From assembly GCA_045567365.1 (NCBI GenBank), contig JBJLDC010000012.1, forward strand, positions 30,809 to 94,808: a stretch of 64,000 bases of DNA, written 5' to 3'. The first letter of the stretch is position 1. The number at the start of each line of letters is the position of its first letter. Below are positions 1 to 55,441 of this stretch, one piece after another. The position numbers and the translations under genes were made by a program. The notes under the pieces are model-generated. The model had not been told where the DNA came from and did not search any database. It saw only the letters and a program-made list of their open reading frames with translations. The DNA comes from Candidatus Pelagibacterales bacterium (GTDB lineage: Bacteria > Pseudomonadota > Alphaproteobacteria > Pelagibacterales > AG-422-B15).

Positions 1-936
1 GCTTTGGTAATTTTAACAAACAAAAAACTTATAGGTGTTAGAGATCCATATGGAATAAGGCCATTAGTATTGGGAGATTTAAAAGGTGCTCCTGTACTTG
101 CTTCTGAAACATGCGCATTAGATATTATTGGGGCAAAGTATGTAAGAGATGTTGAGAATGGAGAGATTATTGTTATTACAGACAATAAAATTGAAAGCAT
201 TAAGCCGTTCCCAAATGTTAATGAGCGTCCATGTATTTTTGAAAGAATATATTTCTCAAGACCTGATAGTATCATTGATGGTCGATCAGTTTATTCATAC
301 CGAAAAAATTTAGGCTCCGAACTTGCAAAAGAGTTTAAAATTGATGCTGACGTTATTGTCCCAATTCCAGACTCTGGAGTTCCAGCGGCATTAGGATTTT
401 CTCAAACTTCTGGTATTCCATTTGAATTAGGCTTAATCAGAAACCATTATGTTGGAAGAACTTTTATTGAGCCAACCCAAAATATTCGTCAGTTTGGAGT
501 GAAATTGAAGCATAGCGTTAATGTTTCATATATAAAAAACAAAAAAGTAATTTTGATAGACGACTCTATAGTTAGAGGAACGACAGCAAAAAAAATAGTG
601 AAGATGGTTTATGATGCAGGAGCAAAAGAGGTTCATCTTGGTGTCTCATGTCCACCAATTACTCATCCTGATTTTTATGGAATTGATACTCCTAATTATA
701 ATGAATTAATTGCTTCAAATAAAAATATAGATGAAATGTCATCTATTATTGGAACAAAATCTCTATTTTTTTTAAGTTTGGATGGAACTTACCGAGCAAT
801 GGGCTGTGAAGAAAGAGATAGTTCATCTCCTCAATTTACAGATCACTGTTTTACAGGTGAGTATCCGACACCATTAATTGATATGGAGCAAGGAAATGTT
901 TCTAAGCAGTACTCTCTCTTGACTGAGAAGAGTTAA
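1..936 (+). CDS. purF: Amidophosphoribosyltransferase, C-terminal part (5' end lies outside the window)
   Basis: The reading frame is open from base 1. It carries the PRPP-binding loop VILIDDSIVRGTT and the DPYGIRPL / PDSG motifs typical of PurF. Confidence 0.9.
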   Translation, partial: ALVILTNKKLIGVRDPYGIRPLVLGDLKGAPVLASETCALDIIGAKYVRDVENGEIIVITDNKIESIKPFPNVNERPCIFERIYFSRPDSIIDGRSVYSYRKNLGSELAKEFKIDADVIVPIPDSGVPAALGFSQTSGIPFELGLIRNHYVGRTFIEPTQNIRQFGVKLKHSVNVSYIKNKKVILIDDSIVRGTTAKKIVKMVYDAGAKEVHLGVSCPPITHPDFYGIDTPNYNELIASNKNIDEMSSIIGTKSLFFLSLDGTYRAMGCEERDSSSPQFTDHCFTGEYPTPLIDMEQGNVSKQYSLLTEKS

Positions 937-1712
937 ATTTCTTTAGGTACGCCTACTTTATTGTACCCACAATCAACATAATGTGTCTCACCTGTTACTC
1001 CTGATGATAAATCACTGAGTAAATACAAACCAGAGTTTCCTACTTCGTCTAGGGTAATGTTTCTTTTCATAAGTGAATTTTTTTCGGACCATTTCATCAT
1101 ATCTTTGCCCCCAGAGATACCTGCCATAGCAAGTGTTTTCATAACACCAGCAGACAATGAATTTACTCTAATTCCATATTCACCCAAATCGGCAGCTAAG
1201 TATCGAACACTAGATTCTAAAGCAGCTTTTGCTACTCCCATTACATTGTAATTGGGTACAGCCCGTTGAGATCCGTCATAAGTTAGAGTAACCATTGATC
1301 CCCCATTAGTCATAAGTGGATATGCTTCTCTTGCTATTTCTGTGAAAGAAAAGCAAGAAATTAGCATTGTATTAGAAAAATTCTCTCTAGATGAATTGAT
1401 ATACTTCCCCTTTAATTCATTTTTATCTGAAAATGCAATTGAATGAAGTACAAAGTCAATAGATTGCCATTTATCTCTGATAAGAGAAAATGTATTTTTT
1501 ATTGAGTCGCTGTTTAAAACATCACATTCAATAAAAAAATTATTATTTATTGATTCAGCTAAAGGCTGTATCCGTCTTAGAAGAGTCTCTCCTTGATATG
1601 TGAAACATAAATCTGCCCCTTGCTCTGATAGTTTTTTTGCAATACCCCAAGCGATCGAATGATCATTTGCTACACCCATTATAATTCCTCTTTTGCCTTC
1701 CAATAGTCCCAT
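933..1712 (-). CDS. fabI: Enoyl-[acyl-carrier-protein] reductase (NADH)
   Basis: 259 aa SDR-fold protein with GVANDHSIAWGIAK at the N-terminus. It sits downstream of fabA-fabB, and its stop overlaps the purF stop region. Confidence 0.9.
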   Translation of the reverse strand: MGLLEGKRGIIMGVANDHSIAWGIAKKLSEQGADLCFTYQGETLLRRIQPLAESINNNFFIECDVLNSDSIKNTFSLIRDKWQSIDFVLHSIAFSDKNELKGKYINSSRENFSNTMLISCFSFTEIAREAYPLMTNGGSMVTLTYDGSQRAVPNYNVMGVAKAALESSVRYLAADLGEYGIRVNSLSAGVMKTLAMAGISGGKDMMKWSEKNSLMKRNITLDEVGNSGLYLLSDLSSGVTGETHYVDCGYNKVGVPKEI

Positions 1713-1713
1713 A

Positions 1714-2925
1714 TCAATTGTATCTCCTAAAAACTAAAGACGCATTTGTTCCACCAAACCCAAAGCTATTACTCATTGCCGTATCAAAAGCTCCCTCTTT
1801 GACAGATGTTAAAATGTTTAAATCCTTCGCAGCTTCATCAATATCCTTAATGTGTGCAGATTCACTCATAAAATCATTATTAAGCATTAATAGAGAATAT
1901 ATAGCTTCTTGAACACCCGCCGCACCGAGTGAATGACCTGTAAGAGATTTTGTTGAACTGATAAAAGGAGTTTCTTTTCCAAATACTTTTTTGACAGCGC
2001 CAAGCTCTGCATTATCACCTACAGGAGTTGAAGTGCCGTGGGCATTTATATAGTCAACTTTTTCATCTAAATTTTTGATTGCCATTTGCATACATCTTTC
2101 AGCACCTTCACCTGAAGGCTGTACCATATCGTAACCATCTGAAGTTGCTCCATATCCAACTAATTCAGCATAAATTTTTGCACCCCTTGATTTTGCGTGT
2201 TCAAGTTCTTCTAAAACCAGCACACCACCACCACCAGCAATTACAAAGCCATCTCTCGAAGAATCAAATGCTCTTGATGCAGTCTCTGGAGTATCATTAT
2301 ATTTTGAAGATAGAGCAGTCATAGCATCAAACAAGGCAGACAATGACCAGTCTAATTCTTCTCCGCCACCAGCAAAGACAATATCCTGTTTTCCCATCTG
2401 AATAAGCTCTGCTCCATGACCTATACAATGCGCACTTGTTGCACAAGCTGAGCTTATAGAATAGTTCATTCCCTTAATTTTAAAGAATGTAGATAATGTT
2501 GCGGAGTTTGTACTACACATTACCTTTGGTACACTTGTAGGGCCAATTTTTTTTGGACCTGTATCCCTTGTAATATCAAACGCTCTTAATAAATTTTTAG
2601 TTGATGGTCCACCCGATCCCATAACAAGGCCTGTCATAGGATTAGAAATAAGATTTTCATCTAATCCAGAATCCTTAAGTGCCTCAAGCATTGCTAAATA
2701 ATTGTAACTAGCACCATCGCCCATGAACCTTAAAAATTTTCTATCAATTGACTCTTGAAGATTAATTTTAATTTGTCCACTTACATGACTTCGAAAATTC
2801 ATATCTTTATGAGATTGATCAAAAGATATTCCTGACTTTGATTCTCTGAGTGAGTTTATAACCTCAATAGCATTATTCCCAATTGGGGAAATTATTCCTA
2901 AGCCAGTAACTACAACTTTTCTCAT
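1714..2925 (-). CDS. fabB: 3-oxoacyl-ACP synthase I (KAS I)
   Basis: 403 aa with active-site context [16 protein letters not shown] and GHSLGAAG. It lies immediately after fabA, as in fabA-fabB operons. Confidence 0.85.
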
Positions 2926-2926
2926 T

Positions 2927-3427
2927 TTATTTTATTAATCCTACCTTCAATCCTTCTGCTGTATATATTTTTTTTCCATCAACAGTGACTGTACCATCGC
3001 CAACTCCCACAACTACGCCTCTTTTAATAACTTTTTTCATATTAATATGATAAGTGACTAATTTAGAGTCTTGCAAAATTTCTCCAGCAAATTTGACATT
3101 TCCAGAACCCAAAGCACGACCTCTACCAGGCTCTCCAATCCAACCAAGATAAAAGCCTACTAGTTGCCACATAGCATCAAGTCCAAGGCACCCAGGCATT
3201 ACTGGATCCATTTCAAAGTGACAGCCAAAAAACCAAAGAGATGGATCAATATCAAACTCAGCGATAATCTCTCCTTTGTCAAATGAACCCCCCTGATCAG
3301 ATATTTTTGTAATTCGATCAAACATAAGCATTGGAGGTAAGGGTAGCCTTGCATTTCCGATGCCAAACATTTTTCCATGACCACATTCTAGTAATTCTTC
3401 ATTTGTGAAGCTTGATTTTTTGTCCAT
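2927..3427 (-). CDS. fabA: 3-hydroxydecanoyl-ACP dehydratase/isomerase
   Basis: 166 aa hot-dog fold protein with the FFGCHF...[12 protein letters not shown] motif characteristic of FabA. Confidence 0.9.
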
Positions 3428-3520
3428 ATGAAATATTTATCTCATTGTTTTAGTTAGATAAGTTAGTAGATTAGGGTATTATTATTGTAAAATATATATT
3501 TATTTATTAAACAAATCATT

Positions 3521-3919
3521 ATGAACTCAATTAAAGATATCTTAAGAAATAGCTCTTTAAGACCTACAAAGCAAAGAATTATGATAGGTAAGCTATTATT
3601 TAATGACACTGACAAGCATGTGACAGCTGAATCTTTATATCGTGAACTCACAGCTTCTGAGCAAAAAATATCTTTAGCAACCGTTTATAATACTCTGCAT
3701 GATTTCTGTGAAAAAAAACTATTAAAGAAAGTAACAATAGACACAGAAAAAGTTTATTTTGATACAAATACCAGTCCGCACCATCACTTTTACTCTGATA
3801 ATGAAAAATTATTAATTGATATTTCTAAAGATAAAATAAAAATTCAGGGACTGCCTAAGGCTCCTAAAGGCAAAAAAATCAAAGATGTAGAGCTGATCGC
3901 TCACTTAACAGATAACTAA
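3521..3919 (+). CDS. irr: Fur-family transcriptional regulator, Irr type (iron response regulator)
   Basis: 132 aa Fur-family winged-helix protein. It has FDTNTSPHHHFY (the Irr HHH motif) and lacks the C-terminal CxxC pairs of classical Fur. It is divergent from fabA, as irr is in Rhizobiales. Confidence 0.75.
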   Translation: MNSIKDILRNSSLRPTKQRIMIGKLLFNDTDKHVTAESLYRELTASEQKISLATVYNTLHDFCEKKLLKKVTIDTEKVYFDTNTSPHHHFYSDNEKLLIDISKDKIKIQGLPKAPKGKKIKDVELIAHLTDN

Positions 3920-3922
3920 GTT

Positions 3923-3941
3923 ATTGATAATAGTTATCAAT
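3923..3941. promoter_or_regulatory. Fur-box-like perfect palindrome ATTGATAA-TAG-TTATCAAT
   Basis: The arms are 8 bp with a 3-nt spacer, and the core TGATAATAGTTATCA is one mismatch from the 7-1-7 Fur box TGATAAT-N-ATTATCA. It lies 4 nt after the irr stop, so it could instead be a weak irr terminator hairpin. Confidence 0.4.
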
Positions 3942-3946
3942 CTCAG

Positions 3947-3963
3947 TTTAGAATTATTCTAAT
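3947..3963. promoter_or_regulatory. ICE-like Irr box TTTAGAA-TTA-TTCTAAT
   Basis: It matches the alphaproteobacterial iron control element TTTAGAA-N3-TTCTAAA at 13 of 14 specified positions. It ends 4 nt before a TTGACA hexamer (3967-3972) upstream of the rubrerythrin gene. Confidence 0.55.
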
Positions 3964-4023
3964 CTATTGACATTTATATTTAAGTTTATATATGTTGGTT
4001 ATAATTAATTTAGGAGATTAGTA

Positions 4024-4443
4024 ATGACTTCATTAAAAGAAAGTAAAACACTTGATAATTTAAAAGCTGCCTTTGCTGGAGAAAGCCAGGCGAATAGAAG
4101 GTACCTATACTTTGCTCAAAAAGCAGATGTTGAAGGTCATAACGATGTTGCGGCTGTATTTAGATCTACTGCTGAAGGTGAAACTGGACATGCTCATGGT
4201 CACTTAGAATTTATGGAAGAAGTGGGTGATCCTGCAACTGGTGAGCCAATTGGTTCAACTGAAGATAATCTGAAAGCAGCTATTGCTGGAGAAACACATG
4301 AATACACCGATATGTATCCTGGTATGGCAAAAACAGCGAGAGAAGAGGGATTTGACGAAATTGCTGACTGGTTTGAAACTTTAGCTAAAGCTGAAAAATC
4401 TCATGCAGGTAAATTTCAAAAAACTCTAGACTCGATCGAATAG
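4024..4443 (+). CDS. Rubrerythrin-family diiron protein (ferritin-like domain only, no rubredoxin domain)
   Basis: 139 aa with N-terminal LKAAFAGESQANRRY and a second LKAAIAGETHE repeat, giving the E...ExxH x2 ligand pattern. AGGAG lies 6 nt upstream of the ATG. Confidence 0.85.
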   Translation: MTSLKESKTLDNLKAAFAGESQANRRYLYFAQKADVEGHNDVAAVFRSTAEGETGHAHGHLEFMEEVGDPATGEPIGSTEDNLKAAIAGETHEYTDMYPGMAKTAREEGFDEIADWFETLAKAEKSHAGKFQKTLDSIE

Positions 4444-4452
4444 TTTATCAAC

Positions 4453-4480
4453 TGAGAGACTGAAATATTTCAGTCTCTCA
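4453..4480 (+). promoter_or_regulatory. Intercistronic perfect 28-nt palindrome / stem-loop (TGAGAGACTGAAAT|ATTTCAGTCTCTCA)
   Basis: Read directly from the sequence between the rubrerythrin stop (4443) and the next start (4492). No U-tract follows, so it is more likely an mRNA stabiliser or partial attenuator than a full terminator. Confidence 0.5.
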
Positions 4481-4491
4481 ATCACCAATTT

Positions 4492-5829
4492 ATGACAGAA
4501 AAAAAAGAGGGAAGTCTCTCAGCTCCAACACGTGATATTGTTGACTGGAAAAGTCCTGATTATTTAAATGAGGATACTTTAGATGCTGAAATGCGTAGAC
4601 AGTTTGAAGTGTGTCATAGCTGTAGAAGATGTTTCAATTTATGTGAGTCATTTCCAACTTTATTTGATTTAATCGATGACTCAAAAGATGAATCTTTAGA
4701 GAGTGTCGACTCTAAAGACTTTCCTAAAGTTGTCGATAAATGCACATTATGTGATATGTGTTTTATGACTAAGTGTCCTTATGTCCCACCACATGAATTT
4801 AACATAGATTTTCCGCACCTTATGTTGAGATATAGAACTCTTCAAAAGAAAAAGGGTCAACTTAGTAAAATGCCACAGGAACTTGCAAAGATTGATCGTA
4901 ATGCAAAAATAGCTGGTGTATCTCCATCAATTGCCAATTGGGGATCGAATAAAAAAAATACTCTTATAAGAAAACCTCTGGAGGCTTTAACTGGAATTGA
5001 TAAGAGTGCTGAGTTACCTAAATTTGAAAAGAAAACTTACATTCAGCAATCAAAAGAAATGTCTAAAGTCATAAATAAAGATGCGCCTGCATTTGGAAGA
5101 AAGGTTGCAATCTATTCTACATGTTATGTAAATTATAATAATACTGCTGTAGGGATAGCCGCTGAAAAAGTTTTATTACATAATGGCGTTGAAGTTATGC
5201 CTGTTTATCCTGGATGCTGTGGAATGCCTTACTTGGAACAATCTCAACATGAAAAAGTTGTAAAACAGTCAGAACTTGTTTCAAATGAATTATGTAAATT
5301 AATTGATGAGGGCTATGATATTGTGACCTTAACGGCAAGTTGTGGATTAATGCTAAAATTTGAATGGCCTTTATTAAATCCTGATAATGAAAAAATAAAA
5401 AAACTTTCAAATAATACTTATGATATTGATCAGTATGTATCTGACATATCAAAAAAAGAAGGCCTCACAACAGGACTGAGTTACATTGATGGAGGAATAA
5501 CGGTTCACAATGCATGTCATGCAAGAGCTCAAAATATGGGAAATAAAGCATTGGAAATGCTAAAAAATCTCCCAGATACCAAAGTTGATGTAGTGGAAAG
5601 ATGCGCAGGACATGGAGGAACTTTTGGTGTAATGAAAGAAACTCGAAATGCTGCGGTTAAATATGGAAGAACAACAGCAAGACAAATAAAAAATAAAAAA
5701 ACAAAGTTTGTAGTATCTGATTGTCCATTAGCAAGTAAACATTTAGATGGACTATTAAATGAAAAAGACGAGGAAGAGATAGTTTCAATGCATCCCATAG
5801 AAATTTTATCAAAATCTTATAATTTATAA
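4492..5829 (+). CDS. (Fe-S)-binding oxidoreductase, HdrD/GlpC-like with CCG domains
   Basis: 445 aa with two ferredoxin-type Cys clusters (CHSCRRCFNLC, CTLCDMCFMTKCP) followed by C-terminal Cys-rich CCG-type segments (PGCCGMP, ERCAGHGG). Confidence 0.8.
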   Translation: MTEKKEGSLSAPTRDIVDWKSPDYLNEDTLDAEMRRQFEVCHSCRRCFNLCESFPTLFDLIDDSKDESLESVDSKDFPKVVDKCTLCDMCFMTKCPYVPPHEFNIDFPHLMLRYRTLQKKKGQLSKMPQELAKIDRNAKIAGVSPSIANWGSNKKNTLIRKPLEALTGIDKSAELPKFEKKTYIQQSKEMSKVINKDAPAFGRKVAIYSTCYVNYNNTAVGIAAEKVLLHNGVEVMPVYPGCCGMPYLEQSQHEKVVKQSELVSNELCKLIDEGYDIVTLTASCGLMLKFEWPLLNPDNEKIKKLSNNTYDIDQYVSDISKKEGLTTGLSYIDGGITVHNACHARAQNMGNKALEMLKNLPDTKVDVVERCAGHGGTFGVMKETRNAAVKYGRTTARQIKNKKTKFVVSDCPLASKHLDGLLNEKDEEEIVSMHPIEILSKSYNL

Positions 5830-5848: not shown

Positions 5849-6442
5849 ATGTCATACAAAGATAAAAAAATAGAACCGTCAGATATTTTATCTATAGATC
5901 AATATACTGCTGAGCGTAAAACTTTAAGAAAAAATCTTGTGGCCATTAAAAAAGATAGGCGTGTTAACTTGGGTCCTCACGCTACATTCTATTTTGAAAA
6001 TTATTATACGATGAAAGCTCAAATTCAAGAGATGTTATATATCGAAAAAGGTGGTGATGAACAATTAAAAGATGAAATGGAAGCATATAATCCACTCATT
6101 CCTCAAGGTAAGGAAATTGTAGCTACCTTTATGTTTGAAATAGATAGCCCCATTACTAGAAAAAATGTTCTTAGCCAACTTGGCGGCGTTGAAAACTTAA
6201 TTTTTGTTTCTATCAATGGTGATAAAATTTTTGCAACTCCTGAAGGTGATACAGAGAGAACTGATGCATACGGAAAAACTTCTTCTGTACATTTCCTACA
6301 TTTTCACATGACTGATGATCAGATTAATAATTTTAAAAATATAGAGTCGAAAATTGAATTGGGAACCGACCATCAAGAATATCTACACACTACAGTCATT
6401 TCTTCTGATACAAAATCATCTTTAATTGAAGATTTAGATTAA
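5849..6442 (+). CDS. DUF3501-family protein (function unknown)
   Basis: 197 aa soluble protein. The family call rests on my recollection that DUF3501 co-occurs with rubrerythrin and HdrD-like genes. It has its own GGAG RBS. Confidence 0.55.
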   Translation: MSYKDKKIEPSDILSIDQYTAERKTLRKNLVAIKKDRRVNLGPHATFYFENYYTMKAQIQEMLYIEKGGDEQLKDEMEAYNPLIPQGKEIVATFMFEIDSPITRKNVLSQLGGVENLIFVSINGDKIFATPEGDTERTDAYGKTSSVHFLHFHMTDDQINNFKNIESKIELGTDHQEYLHTTVISSDTKSSLIEDLD

Positions 6443-12736: not shown

Positions 12737-12746
12737 TTGTAAGAAT

Positions 12747-13010
12747 ATGGCAAATACAAAATCTGCGAAAGCAAAAGTTAGAGAAATTCAGAATAAGACT
12801 GAGTTTAATAAATCTATTAAAAATAGATATCGTACCTTTTTAAAAAAAGTTGAACTAAATATAGTAAAAGGTGACAAAAAAGAAGCACAAGCTTCTCTCA
12901 AAGCAGCAGAATCAGAAATAATGTCTGCAGTTTCAAAAAATATCATCCATTTGAATACAGCATCTAGAAAAATCTCAAGACTTTCAAATAAGATAAAATC
13001 ATTAAAATAA
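12747..13010 (+). CDS. rpsT: 30S ribosomal protein S20
   Basis: 87 aa basic protein starting MANTKSAKAKVR. It is positioned upstream of dnaA, as in many alphaproteobacteria. Confidence 0.92.
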   Translation: MANTKSAKAKVREIQNKTEFNKSIKNRYRTFLKKVELNIVKGDKKEAQASLKAAESEIMSAVSKNIIHLNTASRKISRLSNKIKSLK

Positions 13011-13030
13011 TTTTTCTATTAGAATCGTAC

Positions 13031-13057
13031 ACTTACATCTTCTTATGTAAGTATTTT
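13031..13057 (+). terminator. Weak hairpin after rpsT (ACTTACAT-cttctt-ATGTAAGT followed by ATTTT)
   Basis: 8-bp perfect stem with a 6-nt loop, read directly from the sequence. The stem is AT-rich and the U-tract is short. Confidence 0.35.
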
Positions 13058-13349
13058 AAAAAGTACATGCTCTAAATTGATTTATTTTCTATTCATAGAT
13101 TTAAGATTAAAATTTATTCATAATATTTATCTTTTCTCATTGCGATTCATTTTTTTAAAGGTTAAGTTAAATTCAAATTAAGCACAAAGTCTGTGTTTAA
13201 TTTTCCAAAAATTTTTTGAATTTACTTTTTTAAAAAAATTGATGGCTTATTATTGCCAAACATAATTTTGTAATAAAAATGTAAAAATTCATTTTTATTT
13301 TTGGAATATTTAGATAGAATTTTTATATATTTGAGGGCAGTTAAAATTT

Positions 13350-14759
13350 ATGGCACAAGATCTTAATCAAATCAGCCCCATAGAAATAAATGTAAAAGAC
13401 CTTTGGCTCTTAGTTCTAAAAAAATTAAATAACGAATTAGGAAATGAGATATTTAACAGCTGGATTAAAAACATAAAAGTTCAATCCATAGATGATGATA
13501 TTTTATATTTCTCAGTCCCAACAAGATTTATACGTGATTGGATCACATCCCATTATTTAGATAAGATAATTTTTTTCTTGAATGCAGAAAATCCTAATAT
13601 TAGACGGGTAAAAATATCAATTGATAATATGTTATCTGCTAATCAAGATAATCAAGAAGAAAAAAATACTGAAACTATTAAATATCAGAATCAATCATCT
13701 AATTTTAATCAATCTGATGATTGGCCATTGGATGAACGATTTACATTTGATAAATTTATCACTGGTCCCTCAAATGAATTAGCGTTTGCATCTGCTAAGC
13801 GAATAGCTCAGTCAGAAAAATTTGATTTCAATCCTCTTTTTTTATATGGAGGTGTGGGTCTAGGTAAAACTCATCTAATGCACTCCATTGCTTGGGAAAT
13901 TTCAAATAGTAATCCGGGTGCAAAAGTTTTATATCTTTCCGCAGAACGATTTATGTTTCAATTTATTAAATCTTTAAGACAAAAAGATACCATGAGCTTT
14001 AAACAGAAGTTTAGATCTGTTGATGTCTTAATTTTAGATGATATACAATTTATGGTTGGAAAAAATTCCACCCAAGAAGAATTTTTTCATACTTTCAATT
14101 CTCTTCTTGATTTAAATAAAAAAGTTATTCTCTCTTCTGATAGAGCTCCTAGTGATTTAGATGGTTTTGATGAAAGAATTAAATCAAGATTATCGTGGGG
14201 TCTTGTAGCAGATATTTTACCAGCTTCATTTGAACTTCGTTATGAAATCCTTAAAAAGAAATCAGTGGAGCTTCTTAAGACAAACAGCGGCCACCATGTA
14301 CTTGATGACTCTGTTCTTATTTTTTTAGCAAAGACAATTGTAAGTAATGTTAGAGAACTTGAAGGGGCCCTTAATAAAGTTGTTACATTCTCAAATATTA
14401 TGAATAAGAAAATTGATGTAGAATTAACTAAGACTGTGCTTAAAGATTTATTAAGATCAAATAATAAAAGAATTACTATTGATGAAATACAAAATAAAGT
14501 TTCAAACTATTATAACATCAATACTGAGGATCTTATATCAAGCAGAAGACTAAGATCGTTTGCTAGGCCAAGACAGGTCGCCATGTATCTTGCAAAAAAA
14601 TTAACATCTAGATCTTTACCTGAAATTGGTAGAAAGTTTGGAGGCAGGGATCACACTACTGTTATTCATGCTGTAAAAAAAATAGATCAACTTAAATCTG
14701 AGAATGAAAAATTTGATGAAGATGTCAGTGTGCTTACTCAAATTATCACTTCTTCTTAA
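13350..14759 (+). CDS. dnaA: Chromosomal replication initiator protein DnaA
   Basis: 469 aa with the Walker A motif GGVGLGKTHL, the AAA+ core, and C-terminal domain IV (GGRDHTTVIHA). Confidence 0.97.
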   Translation: MAQDLNQISPIEINVKDLWLLVLKKLNNELGNEIFNSWIKNIKVQSIDDDILYFSVPTRFIRDWITSHYLDKIIFFLNAENPNIRRVKISIDNMLSANQDNQEEKNTETIKYQNQSSNFNQSDDWPLDERFTFDKFITGPSNELAFASAKRIAQSEKFDFNPLFLYGGVGLGKTHLMHSIAWEISNSNPGAKVLYLSAERFMFQFIKSLRQKDTMSFKQKFRSVDVLILDDIQFMVGKNSTQEEFFHTFNSLLDLNKKVILSSDRAPSDLDGFDERIKSRLSWGLVADILPASFELRYEILKKKSVELLKTNSGHHVLDDSVLIFLAKTIVSNVRELEGALNKVVTFSNIMNKKIDVELTKTVLKDLLRSNNKRITIDEIQNKVSNYYNINTEDLISSRRLRSFARPRQVAMYLAKKLTSRSLPEIGRKFGGRDHTTVIHAVKKIDQLKSENEKFDEDVSVLTQIITSS

Positions 14760-14827
14760 TAACTTTTAGTCATTCAAATCTTTATCTATTGCTAATTAAA
14801 TTGTAGAATAGTAATTGTAGTATTCAT

Positions 14828-15955
14828 ATGGATTTTAGAGTAAACAGCACCGAACTTCTTAGAGCATTATCTCACATACATGGTATTGTTGAAGTCCGTC
14901 ACACTCTTCCAATATTATCGAATATTATCATTACAACTCACGATAATTTACTATCATTATCTTCAACCAACCTAGACATTTTCTGTTCTGATGATTTGGA
15001 GGCTGAAGTTGGTCAGAATGGTTCTACTTCGGTTTCAGCTGCTACTTTTTATGAAATAGTAAAAAGACTACCAAGTGGATCAGAAATTCATGCATCTTTA
15101 TCGGAGGAAGACTCAACTTTAGCTTTGAAGTGTGGAAGATCAAAATTTAATCTTACTACGATTTCACCCGATGATTTTCCCAAGATTTCTCATGATGATT
15201 TAAATATACAATTTGTCTTAAGTGCAACTGAGCTTAAGAGAATGATAGATAAGACTAAATTTGCAATCTCGAATGAAGAAACTAGATACTACTTAAATGG
15301 AGTTTTTCTTCATCAAACTCAAAAAAACTCAATAGATATTTTAAGAGCTGTTGCGACAGATGGACATCGTCTAGCTCAATACGATATTCCTTTACCCCAA
15401 GGGGCTAAAGATATGAATGGAATTATCATTCCAAAAAAAATGATTCAAGAATTAAGAAGAGTTTTAGATGATGCAACGGGTGATATCAATATACAACTCA
15501 ATGAAAATAAAATTAAATTTTCATTTAATAACATGCAGATTATTTCAAAAGTTATCGACGGAACTTTTCCAGACTATACAAAAGTCATACCTCAATCCAA
15601 TGATAAATCAATAACAACAAATAATGAGGAATTAAAAAAAGCAATAGACAGAGTCTCTGCAGTTGCAATAAATGAAGAAACTAAATCAAAAGCTATAAAA
15701 TTAATTATTGAGTCAAATAAAATATCTTTAAGTGTTGATTCGTCATCAAGAGGATCAGCAATAGAAGAAATTGATTTAGATTATAATAATGAAAAAGTTG
15801 AGATTGGTTTTAACTCAAGATATTTAATTGATATTTGTAATGAGATAGATGGCGATAAGATCAATCTCAAGTTTTTGAACTCTACGTCTCCTGCAATAAT
15901 CCTAGATAATACAGATGAAAATCTTTTTTTTGTATTAATGCCAATGCGAATTTAA
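14828..15955 (+). CDS. dnaN: DNA polymerase III beta sliding clamp
   Basis: 375 aa with a three-domain clamp pattern, ATDGHRLA, and the C-terminal LMPMRI. Confidence 0.96.
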   Translation: MDFRVNSTELLRALSHIHGIVEVRHTLPILSNIIITTHDNLLSLSSTNLDIFCSDDLEAEVGQNGSTSVSAATFYEIVKRLPSGSEIHASLSEEDSTLALKCGRSKFNLTTISPDDFPKISHDDLNIQFVLSATELKRMIDKTKFAISNEETRYYLNGVFLHQTQKNSIDILRAVATDGHRLAQYDIPLPQGAKDMNGIIIPKKMIQELRRVLDDATGDINIQLNENKIKFSFNNMQIISKVIDGTFPDYTKVIPQSNDKSITTNNEELKKAIDRVSAVAINEETKSKAIKLIIESNKISLSVDSSSRGSAIEEIDLDYNNEKVEIGFNSRYLIDICNEIDGDKINLKFLNSTSPAIILDNTDENLFFVLMPMRI

Positions 15956-15961
15956 ACTTAC

Positions 15962-20233
<4,272 letters not shown>

Positions 20234-53777: not shown

Positions 53778-54185
53778 ATGTTATTAACCTTTTATAAAGA
53801 GGGTGTGGAATGTGGATTTCCATCTCCAGCTAGGGATTTTACCGAGAGCTCTATAGATTTAAATGAAGAGCTGATTCATCGCCCCAACTCAACTTTTGTC
53901 GTTAGAGCACGTGGTCATTCAATGATTGATGCAGGCATATCACCTGGTGATTTAATTATTGTTGATCGAAGTTTAAAGCCACGTCATGGATCAGTAATAG
54001 TTGCAGTATTAGATGGAGAACTCAGTATTAAGATTCTTAATATAAAAAGTAAACATGATATTTCATTAGAATCAGCAAATAAAAACTATGAAGATGTTCA
54101 TGTCTCAGAAGAAATGGATTTTATGATTTGGGGTGTCTGTACATATGTAGTTCACGATCTGAAAAAACTTAATTCTTCTTTATGA
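53778..54185 (+). CDS. umuD: Translesion polymerase V accessory subunit UmuD (S24 LexA-like peptidase)
   Basis: The ECGFPSPA block contains the Cys-Gly cleavage site. The Ser nucleophile is in GHSMIDAG and the Lys is in LSIKIL. An in-frame TAA two codons upstream fixes the start. Confidence 0.88.
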
Positions 54186-55441
54186 AAAAAAAAGTTTTTG
54201 CACTCATAGACTGTAATGCATTTTATGTTTCTTGTGAGAGAGTGTTCAATCCAAAATTAAATAATAAACCTGTAGTAGCACTGTCCAATAATGATGGATG
54301 CATTATTGCTAGATCTAAAGAAGCAAAAGCTCTTGGTATTAAGATGGGAGTTCCACTTTTTAAAGTTAAAGACATTGTAGAAAGAGAAAATGTAATTGTA
54401 TTTTCATCTAACTATACTTTGTATGCAGATATGTCACGACGAGTTATGAATATAATATCTGAGTTTACTCCAAGTATTGAAGTTTATTCAATTGATGAAG
54501 CATTTATTGAGCTAACCAATATGAATGTAGACTATGAGTCTTATGCTCGTCATATGAGAAAAGTAATTTTACAATATACAGGTATTCCAGTTAGTATTGG
54601 TATTGCCTCAACAAAGACTCTAACAAAAGTAGCAAATCATATCGCTAAAGATGATGAGTCTTTAGAAGGTGTATGCTCACTAATTCAACACGAGAATTTA
54701 GATCAAGTTTTAGAAGATACCAACGTCGCAGATGTATGGGGTGTTGGACGACAGCTGTCTAAGAAGTTAATAGCGAACGGTATATTTAATGCCAAACTAC
54801 TGAAAAATTGTGAAGATGCATGGGTTCGAAAAATGATGAGTGTTAATGGATTAAAAACAGTATCTGAATTAAGAGAGATATCTTGTCTAGATCTGGAGGA
54901 AACTTCTGCTACTCGAAAAAGCTGTTGCACTACAAGATCATTTGGAAAACCATTGATAAATCTTGAAGATATAGAGCAGGCAGTTACCACGTTTGCTCGT
55001 CGCGCAACAGAGAGAATTAGAGGTGAAAATTTAATTGCTTCCACAGTCTCTGTTTTCTTAAGAACAAATCCTTTTGATAGAAACCGTTATTATTCAAATA
55101 GTTCAACCACAACGTTGAGTTATCCAACTTATGATACGGTGCAGATAGTGAAGATAGCCTTACAGTTAACTAAAATAATTTTTCGAGAAAATTATAAGTA
55201 TAAGAAGGCAGGTGTTCTATTAAGTGGGCTTTATGAAAAAGGCACTGAAACAAAAGATTTATTTTCTGAGACAAGATATAGATCACCAAAATTAATGTCT
55301 GCGGTTGATCAAATTAACGAGCGTTATGGGAGTGATACAATTCAAATAGCAACAGAATGTCAGATGGGCAAATGGAAACAAAAAAGAAAGAATTGTACTC
55401 AGAGTTATACCACCCAACTTGATAATGTTTTATTGATTTAA
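54182..55441 (+). CDS. umuC: Y-family DNA polymerase V catalytic subunit UmuC
   Basis: 419 aa with N-terminal [16 protein letters not shown], the SIDEAF catalytic motif, and an ATGA overlap with umuD. Confidence 0.9.

Follow-up and report, generated by a model that had tools for sequence, protein, structure and literature searches.

Two adjacent palindromic elements occupy the 104-nt spacer between irr and the downstream rubrerythrin gene rbr of a Candidatus Pelagibacterales bacterium, and judged by their conservation and fixed spacing they are functional, conserved elements of one promoter. The first element (box 1, 3923-3941) is plausibly a Fur-type site and as such a candidate addition to this locus. 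The second (3947-3963) is an iron control element (ICE), i.e. a predicted Irr operator, and by sequence comparison this assignment is sound. All positions refer to the window, which is the complete 64-kb stretch of DNA that was analysed. Starting with the stop codon of irr (TAA, 3917-3919), the spacer reads TAA-GTT-ATTGATAATAGTTATCAAT-CTCAG-TTTAGAATTATTCTAAT-CTA-TTGACA. The Irr half of the finding is an already known computational prediction: the minimal Irr regulon proposed for P. ubique by Rodionov et al. in 2006 consists of the rubrerythrin gene (PMC1698941). What is new is box 1. We propose that the 47-bp region 3925-3971 is the control region of a sigma-70-type promoter of rbr, which would hold two neighbouring operators for proteins of the Fur family, both of 7-1-7 design. 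From these data, we infer which proteins bind, where transcription starts and whether each regulatory input is positive or negative.

The window is AT-rich (about 30% G+C), and the related loci all stem from genomes of Pelagibacteraceae/SAR11 or from marine metagenomes. Upstream of irr, the genes fabI, fabB and fabA are located on the minus strand (933-3427), and irr adjoins fabA-fabB-fabI in every SAR11 locus examined. The gene irr (3521-3919, plus strand) codes for a Fur-family regulator of 132 amino acids, which scored 74 bits with the Pfam model FUR. The original prediction had named its product Irr; this was borne out by a score of 168.8 bits with the NCBIfam model IrrA (cut-off 150), by the HHH motif and by the presence of a single Cys residue. 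The gene rbr (4024-4443, plus strand) codes for a rubrerythrin-domain protein of 139 amino acids (Pfam Rubrerythrin, 105.7 bits). Its score with the NCBIfam model Rbr, which was 135.7 bits and thus under the cut-off of 200, stems from model positions 1-146 of 194; only the four-helix di-iron part is matched, and the rubredoxin domain is absent. The next gene encodes a CCG-domain Fe-S protein resembling GlpC and HdrD (4492-5829, plus strand; Pfam CCG), whose matches to GlpC-like NCBIfam models are all under cut-off. The final gene of the cluster encodes a DUF3501 protein (5849-6442, plus strand; Pfam DUF3501, 206.9 bits). The same trio of genes is also found together in related loci, and the CCG Fe-S protein and the DUF3501 protein may supply Rbr with electrons.

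Immediately after rbr, a 12-bp stem-loop is predicted on the plus strand (4453-4480; -18.6 kcal/mol, z = -5.1). A stem-loop at this place, with differing sequence, is predicted in 11 of the 12 loci examined, the exception being L034; in L170, a T run follows it. The structure may serve as a partial terminator or attenuator, or as an mRNA stabiliser, and in this way set the level of Rbr above that of the downstream proteins. A search of positions 3400-4600 against Rfam gave no known RNA motif. Elsewhere in the window, the region 12737-19508 is distinguished by dnaA, dnaN, recF and gyrB at 13350-19508, and the cumulative GC skew is lowest at about 10-14 kb; the replication origin is probably located within the window. 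A gene pair at 53778-55441 resembles umuD (Peptidase_S24) and umuC (IMS family), which is notable for a small genome.

Box 1 is a perfect 8-3-8 palindrome, ATTGATAA-TAG-TTATCAAT, and its 7-1-7 core TGATAAT-A-GTTATCA (3925-3939) differs in one position from the Fur consensus TGATAATnATTATCA, both as originally predicted. Written as a 9-1-9 palindrome, the element is ATTGATAAT-A-GTTATCAAT; compared to AATGATAATnATTATCATT, it matches in 15 of 18 positions. Its left half TGATAAT agrees completely with the classical Fur half-site. Box 1 carries a T where the Fur sites of Caulobacter hold a strongly conserved G. For scoring, a Fur matrix was derived from 27 Caulobacter Fur sites, which cover a range of 11.4-24.2 bits. 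With a uniform background, box 1 is the best match of the window (15.6 bits), and it ranks second if the composition of the window is used as the background. About 10% of composition-preserving shuffles of 64 kb also contain a position that reaches 15.6 bits; the case for Fur at box 1 therefore rests on position and conservation. The variants of box 1 in L034 and L170 scored 19.5 and 18.3 bits, respectively, with the same matrix. The second-best match to it in the window (20013-20031, CCTGAGATCCATTCTAAAT, 12.2 bits) is located within a YgjP-like ORF, with a histidine kinase gene about 250 nt downstream, and is probably due to chance.

The sequence of the second element is TTTAGAA-TTA-TTCTAAT. 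It matches 13 of the 14 bases of TTTAGAA-N3-TTCTAAA, in agreement with the original prediction, and deviates from the motif TTTRGAAYNRTTCYAAA of Rodionov et al. only in the final position. In 7-1-7 form, it reads TTAGAAT-T-ATTCTAA (core 3948-3962). When scored in the register of box 1, the ICE reached only 5.1 bits with the Caulobacter Fur matrix; it departs from Fur-type half-sites chiefly at positions 2 and 4. Across lineages, the half-sites of box 1 always contain TGA..TCA and those of the ICE always TTA..TAA. These distinct invariant bases and the low score of the ICE argue for two different proteins. The description of the ICE by Nienaber et al. reportedly concerned heme-uptake genes, and the work on the rubrerythrin-like gene blr7895 is said to have come later. 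That this description was the first, and that the ICE is the target of Irr according to Rudolph et al., is stated in the introduction of PMC1698941.

In order to assess conservation, irr loci were gathered whose Irr proteins differ in their degree of identity to that of the window. Ten lineages, whose Irr proteins are 58-99% identical to that of the window, have a co-directional gene past irr, and all of them keep a cassette with the order box 1, 7-nt linker, ICE, three nucleotides, TTGAC. The cassette is 47 nt long (3925-3971) in every one of these lineages and 85-100% identical to that of the window, while in comparisons with more distant lineages the identity at four-fold degenerate sites of irr is as low as 25-40%. 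Invariant are the columns TGATAATA..T.TCA of box 1 (followed by.T in the alignment), the ICE core TTAGAAT.ATTCTAA, and TTGAC at a fixed distance from the ICE (column pattern T.TTGAC). Within box 1, the left half is fixed and the right half is degenerate: it occurs as GTTATCA, ACTATCA, GTTCTCA and ATTCTCA, which breaks the pairing without compensation. The stretch between the -35 region and the ribosome-binding site is variable except for a TATAT block. The comparison of orthologous intergenic regions that the original prediction had proposed as a check revealed both elements conserved in ten lineages. The central claim of that prediction, namely that both are operators at one promoter, is strengthened by this conservation and by the fixed spacing, the binding proteins being predicted.

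In most cassette lineages, the rbr operon is located downstream. The lineages L021-L026 have a 61-aa ORF (4003-4188 in their own coordinates) instead, which has no family match, and their ICE is the perfect version TTTAGAA-TTA-TTCTAAA. In L030, L031-L033 and L167-L169, the gene past irr is convergent to it, and the cassette is completely absent. The cassette tracks the co-directional downstream gene; it should therefore be considered a promoter-operator module of that gene and not a part of the irr 3' end. The autoregulatory read-through that had been considered earlier finds no support: the cassette is lost where no such gene follows irr, and in the window clade the irr promoter contains no ICE.

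It could be argued that the palindromes arose by chance in AT-rich intergenic DNA. The window does contain many perfect inverted repeats with arms of 8 bp (31, compared to 17.8 +/- 4.8 in shuffles), so it is the identity of the motifs that counts and not their palindromy. With at most one mismatch, however, the Fur core and the ICE each occur once in the window, the expected numbers being 0.12 and 0.15 per 64 kb, and in 0 of 200 dinucleotide-preserving shuffles was the pair found within 60 bp. The near-identity and the fixed length of the cassette among lineages whose synonymous sites are saturated point in the same direction, and the probability that chance produced the pair is minute.

It is similarly hard to believe, and we regard it as highly improbable, that box 1 is merely the transcription terminator or a 3' hairpin of irr. 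The element begins 3 nt past the irr stop codon, is a perfect 8-bp inverted repeat, and its RNA fold is somewhat better than those of shuffled sequences (z = -3.0). The stem of -4.6 kcal/mol consists nearly completely of A-U pairs, however, and is not followed by a U tract; moreover, a terminator scan of the region was empty. In other lineages, substitutions disrupt the stem without compensating changes while the left half stays invariant, and box 1 is missing in three lineages where irr still needs a terminator. Box 1 was consequently rejected as an intrinsic terminator for want of a G+C-rich stem, of a U tract and of compensating changes. The original prediction had itself raised the case of a first palindrome acting only as the irr terminator; fold, scan and lineage comparison all speak against it.

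The best promoter-like match in the spacer has its -35 hexamer TTGACA at 3967-3972 on the plus strand. The promoter scan gave TTGACA-N18-TATGTT as output. We infer a -10 region at 3989-3996 (plus strand), which corresponds either to TATATG with a 16-nt spacer or to TATGTT with an 18-nt spacer. In other lineages, the semi-conserved TATAT block is found 16 nt past the -35 region, and it reads TATATT in L016 and L021. The -10 hexamer of rbr is weak, and the choice of the exact hexamer as well as the start site deduced from it are provisional. A ribosome-binding site AGGAG (4012-4016, plus strand) was read directly from the sequence, and its GGA is kept in the alignment. Two alternative promoters within the palindromes, TTGATA-N19-TAGAAT and TTATCA-N18-TCTAAT, were rejected because of a poor spacing or a poor -10 hexamer and because of the invariant TTGAC that follows the ICE. 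The gap between the ICE and TTGACA consists of the three bases CTA (3964-3966); the value of 4 nt given earlier has to be corrected. The centres of box 1 (3932) and of the ICE (3955) are 23 bp apart and, relative to the presumed start site, are positioned at about -70 and -47, respectively. Box 1 overlaps neither the -35 nor the -10 region.

On the basis of this geometry, the following scheme is proposed. The ICE, which abuts the -35 region, is most likely bound by Irr encoded by the gene just upstream. Irr, which is active at low iron or heme, would occlude the -35 region and thus repress transcription. The ccpA promoter of R. sphaeroides is bound by purified Irr; its Irr box precedes the mapped 5' end by about 40 nt, and an irr mutant shows increased expression of ccpA (PMC3413700). 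The position of the ICE at the window locus matches this ccpA geometry. Iron-loaded Fur is the most likely ligand of box 1, which is located upstream of the ICE at a distance of one operator-length; with sufficient iron, this Fur would favour transcription or work against Irr. Those Fur sites of Caulobacter that are located upstream of the -35 region activate genes of iron-using proteins in iron-sufficient cells, whereas Fur sites overlapping the promoter repress (PMC2724300). The position of box 1 upstream of the -35 region therefore suggests a Fur-activated rather than a classical repression geometry. The earlier Fur-box reading is strengthened by the fit to a 9-1-9 box and by the invariant half-site bases, but the centre at about -70 is not that of a classical repressor site. 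The two genes after rbr would be transcribed by read-through, and both inputs together would restrict the synthesis of di-iron and Fe-S proteins to iron-sufficient cells. We consider the chance that Irr represses at low iron and iron-loaded Fur assists expression at high iron to be about even.

The opposite logic, in which iron-loaded Fur at box 1 represses and Irr at the upstream ICE activates, would make a peroxidase operon that is induced at iron scarcity. For P. ubique HTCC1062, a 1.57-fold increase of rbr mRNA at iron limitation has been reported (PMC2864753), which is the opposite of pure iron-sparing. Furthermore, an ICE has been proposed to exert a positive or a negative effect according to where in the promoter it is located (PMC1698941), and at the window locus both box 1 and the ICE are upstream of the -35 region. 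However, an Irr dimer bound only 3 nt from the -35 hexamer should clash with RNA polymerase, and the comparable geometry of R. sphaeroides ccpA leads to repression. In addition, classical repression by Fur is exerted from sites that overlap the promoter, while the upstream ones of Caulobacter activate. Lineages resembling L005, whose Irr proteins are 45-47% identical to that of the window, differ in having an ICE over the -10 region and no box 1, and the promoter layout behind the 1.57-fold increase in HTCC1062 may be of the window type or a different one. Taken together, we regard this inverted regulation as unlikely.

If Irr repression and Fur-assisted expression are retained as the preferred scheme, it still has to be asked whether the protein at box 1 is Fur. 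Candidates are the Rrf2-family protein IscR, a second Irr dimer or another factor. The Fur-alpha, RirA, Iron-Rhodo and IscR boxes share the pattern TG-N11-CA, and the IscR site of P. ubique is detected with the Iron-Rhodo profile (PMC1698941). Under iron limitation, the suf operon and rbr rise together (PMC2864753). No fur gene was found within the 64-kb window, nor were suf, sfu or iscR; in P. ubique HTCC1062, Fur is encoded (PMC2864753), and only the fbp operon was predicted to be regulated by Fur in P. ubique by Rodionov et al. (PMC1698941). Against a non-Fur protein stand the classical left half-site and the 19-bp 9-1-9 outline ATTG...CAAT, which fits validated alphaproteobacterial Fur sites. 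Moreover, the different invariant bases kept by box 1 and the ICE speak against Irr at both sites, and the IscR half-site quoted in PMC1698941 is cTTGACgr and not TTGATAA. An operator for one of these other proteins is accordingly an improbable explanation of box 1, and iron-loaded Fur remains the favoured candidate.

SAR11 lineages that are more distant from the window also have ICE-like sites past irr, and the layout of the promoter varies among them. In L005 and L036-L043, two ICE-like sites flank the -35 hexamer of rbr in the arrangement TTTAAAA-CGA-TTCTAAA, TTGACT, TTTAGAA-TCA-TTATAAA, with one site over the -10 region. In these lineages, a further conserved ICE-like site precedes the start codon of irr by about 50 nt and suggests autoregulation of Irr; the window clade is without it. 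In L006-L015, whose Irr proteins are about 45% identical to that of the window, irr is followed by a catalase-peroxidase-like gene and not by a rubrerythrin gene; its product starts with MSVEYKKNGSGKCPVMHG. The region in question, just past irr, is at about 4372-4450 in the coordinates of each locus. The promoter of these katG lineages is TTGACT-N5/6-TTTAGAATAATTATAAA, and the ICE is located over the spacer and the -10 region. Upstream of irr in the window, the fabA-irr spacer contains the block ATTGTAAAATATATA (3490-3505), which is conserved in the window clade and looks like an extended -10 element (TG-n-TAAAAT) for irr. An ICE or a Fur-like site was not found there.

Metagenomes were scanned for a pattern consisting of an ICE, 2 nt, TTGAC and a -10-like element; this spacing does not match that of the SAR11 irr loci, which is 3 nt. 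At least 120 contigs contain an ICE followed by 2 nt and TTGAC, mainly upstream of an nfuA-like gene or of a gene for a Fur-family protein. An ICE abutting TTGAC is widespread in metagenomes, and the place of the ICE directly before the -35 region in the window agrees with this. Among the matches listed (L044-L163), 57 mostly soil or peat contigs contain TTTAGAAnnnTTCTAA, with TGAC following four bases on; the commonest form in these contigs is TTTAGAATTATTCTAAA-TC-TTGAC. Their sites are positioned just upstream of a gene for a Cys-rich Fur-family protein (HCHYYC...CxxC), which belongs to no NCBIfam family above cut-off. In 21 more contigs among the matches listed, the site is found upstream of an nfuA-like gene whose product starts with MFIQTE. 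ICE-type operators may thus serve more proteins of the Fur family than Irr.

SAR11 bacteria dominate the iron-poor surface oceans and possess very few regulators, which makes every single regulatory input informative. Should box 1 prove to be a true Fur site, the Fur regulon predicted for this group would exceed the single iron-uptake operon proposed in 2006, and peroxide defence would be tied to both iron sensors. With at least three operator layouts across lineages, the irr-linked locus is a tractable case of regulatory change in reduced genomes. It is conceivable, although we would call it a tentative idea with rather less than even prospects, that in the streamlined SAR11 genomes the paralogues Fur and Irr each recognise one of two neighbouring 7-1-7 operators, whose half-sites differ in only one or two bases. 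The 47 bp would then be a compact, portable module of iron logic, which would have been attached to different genes (the rbr operon or the 61-aa ORF), lost together with its target and, in sister subclades, exchanged for other layouts with an ICE over the -10 region or two ICEs flanking the -35 region. If this were true, promoters would have been rewired in a bacterial group that is among the most abundant.

With respect to known systems, the arrangement is another dual-motif iron promoter, which is largely expected and does not change the understanding of Irr and Fur. Closest is the Irr-ICE regulon, which comprises blr7895 of B. japonicum, mbfA and ccpA of R. sphaeroides, and the rubrerythrin gene predicted for P. 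ubique. The motif is the same, irr is likewise present, the target is an iron-containing peroxide-defence protein, and the operator is located by the promoter; the rubrerythrin prediction for P. ubique (PMC1698941) concerns the same kind of locus as that of the window. In contrast to this regulon, the ICE of the window clade occurs only upstream of the -35 region and is paired with a second operator, and Irr binding in SAR11 is predicted.

Box 1 resembles the Fur-alpha box of Caulobacter crescentus, as both are 19-bp 9-1-9 palindromes with the ends ATTG...CAAT. The Caulobacter boxes follow ATTG[A/C]GAAYNRTTCTCAAT, and experimentally supported sites are, for example, ATTGAGAACCATTCTCAAA and ATTGCGAATAATTATCATT. 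The activating sites of Caulobacter, which belong to the iron-using-protein genes sdhC, nuoA and acnA, are likewise located upstream of the -35 region. Unlike the Caulobacter box, box 1 of the window has a degenerate right half and contains the classical GATAAT instead of G[A/C]GAA, and both the binding of Fur and the activation by it are predicted.

The 7-1-7 boxes of Bacillus subtilis Fur, PerR and Zur were reportedly worked out by Baichoo and Helmann in 2002 and by Fuangthong and Helmann in 2003, both cited in PMC2864753. These paralogues read one operator design, and what distinguishes their boxes is one or two bases in each half-site. The half-sites TGATAAT and TTAGAAT of the window represent one design in a similar way. 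In contrast to the B. subtilis boxes, the operators of the window are located side by side at one promoter, and the predicted pair of proteins is Fur and Irr. Finally, anaerobes such as Desulfovibrio vulgaris possess perR(fur-like)-rbr operons, in which, as in the window, the gene of a Fur-family regulator directly adjoins that of a rubrerythrin. In the window, however, it is Irr that is encoded next to rbr, the bacterium is aerobic, Rbr is without a rubredoxin domain, and rbr has a promoter of its own.
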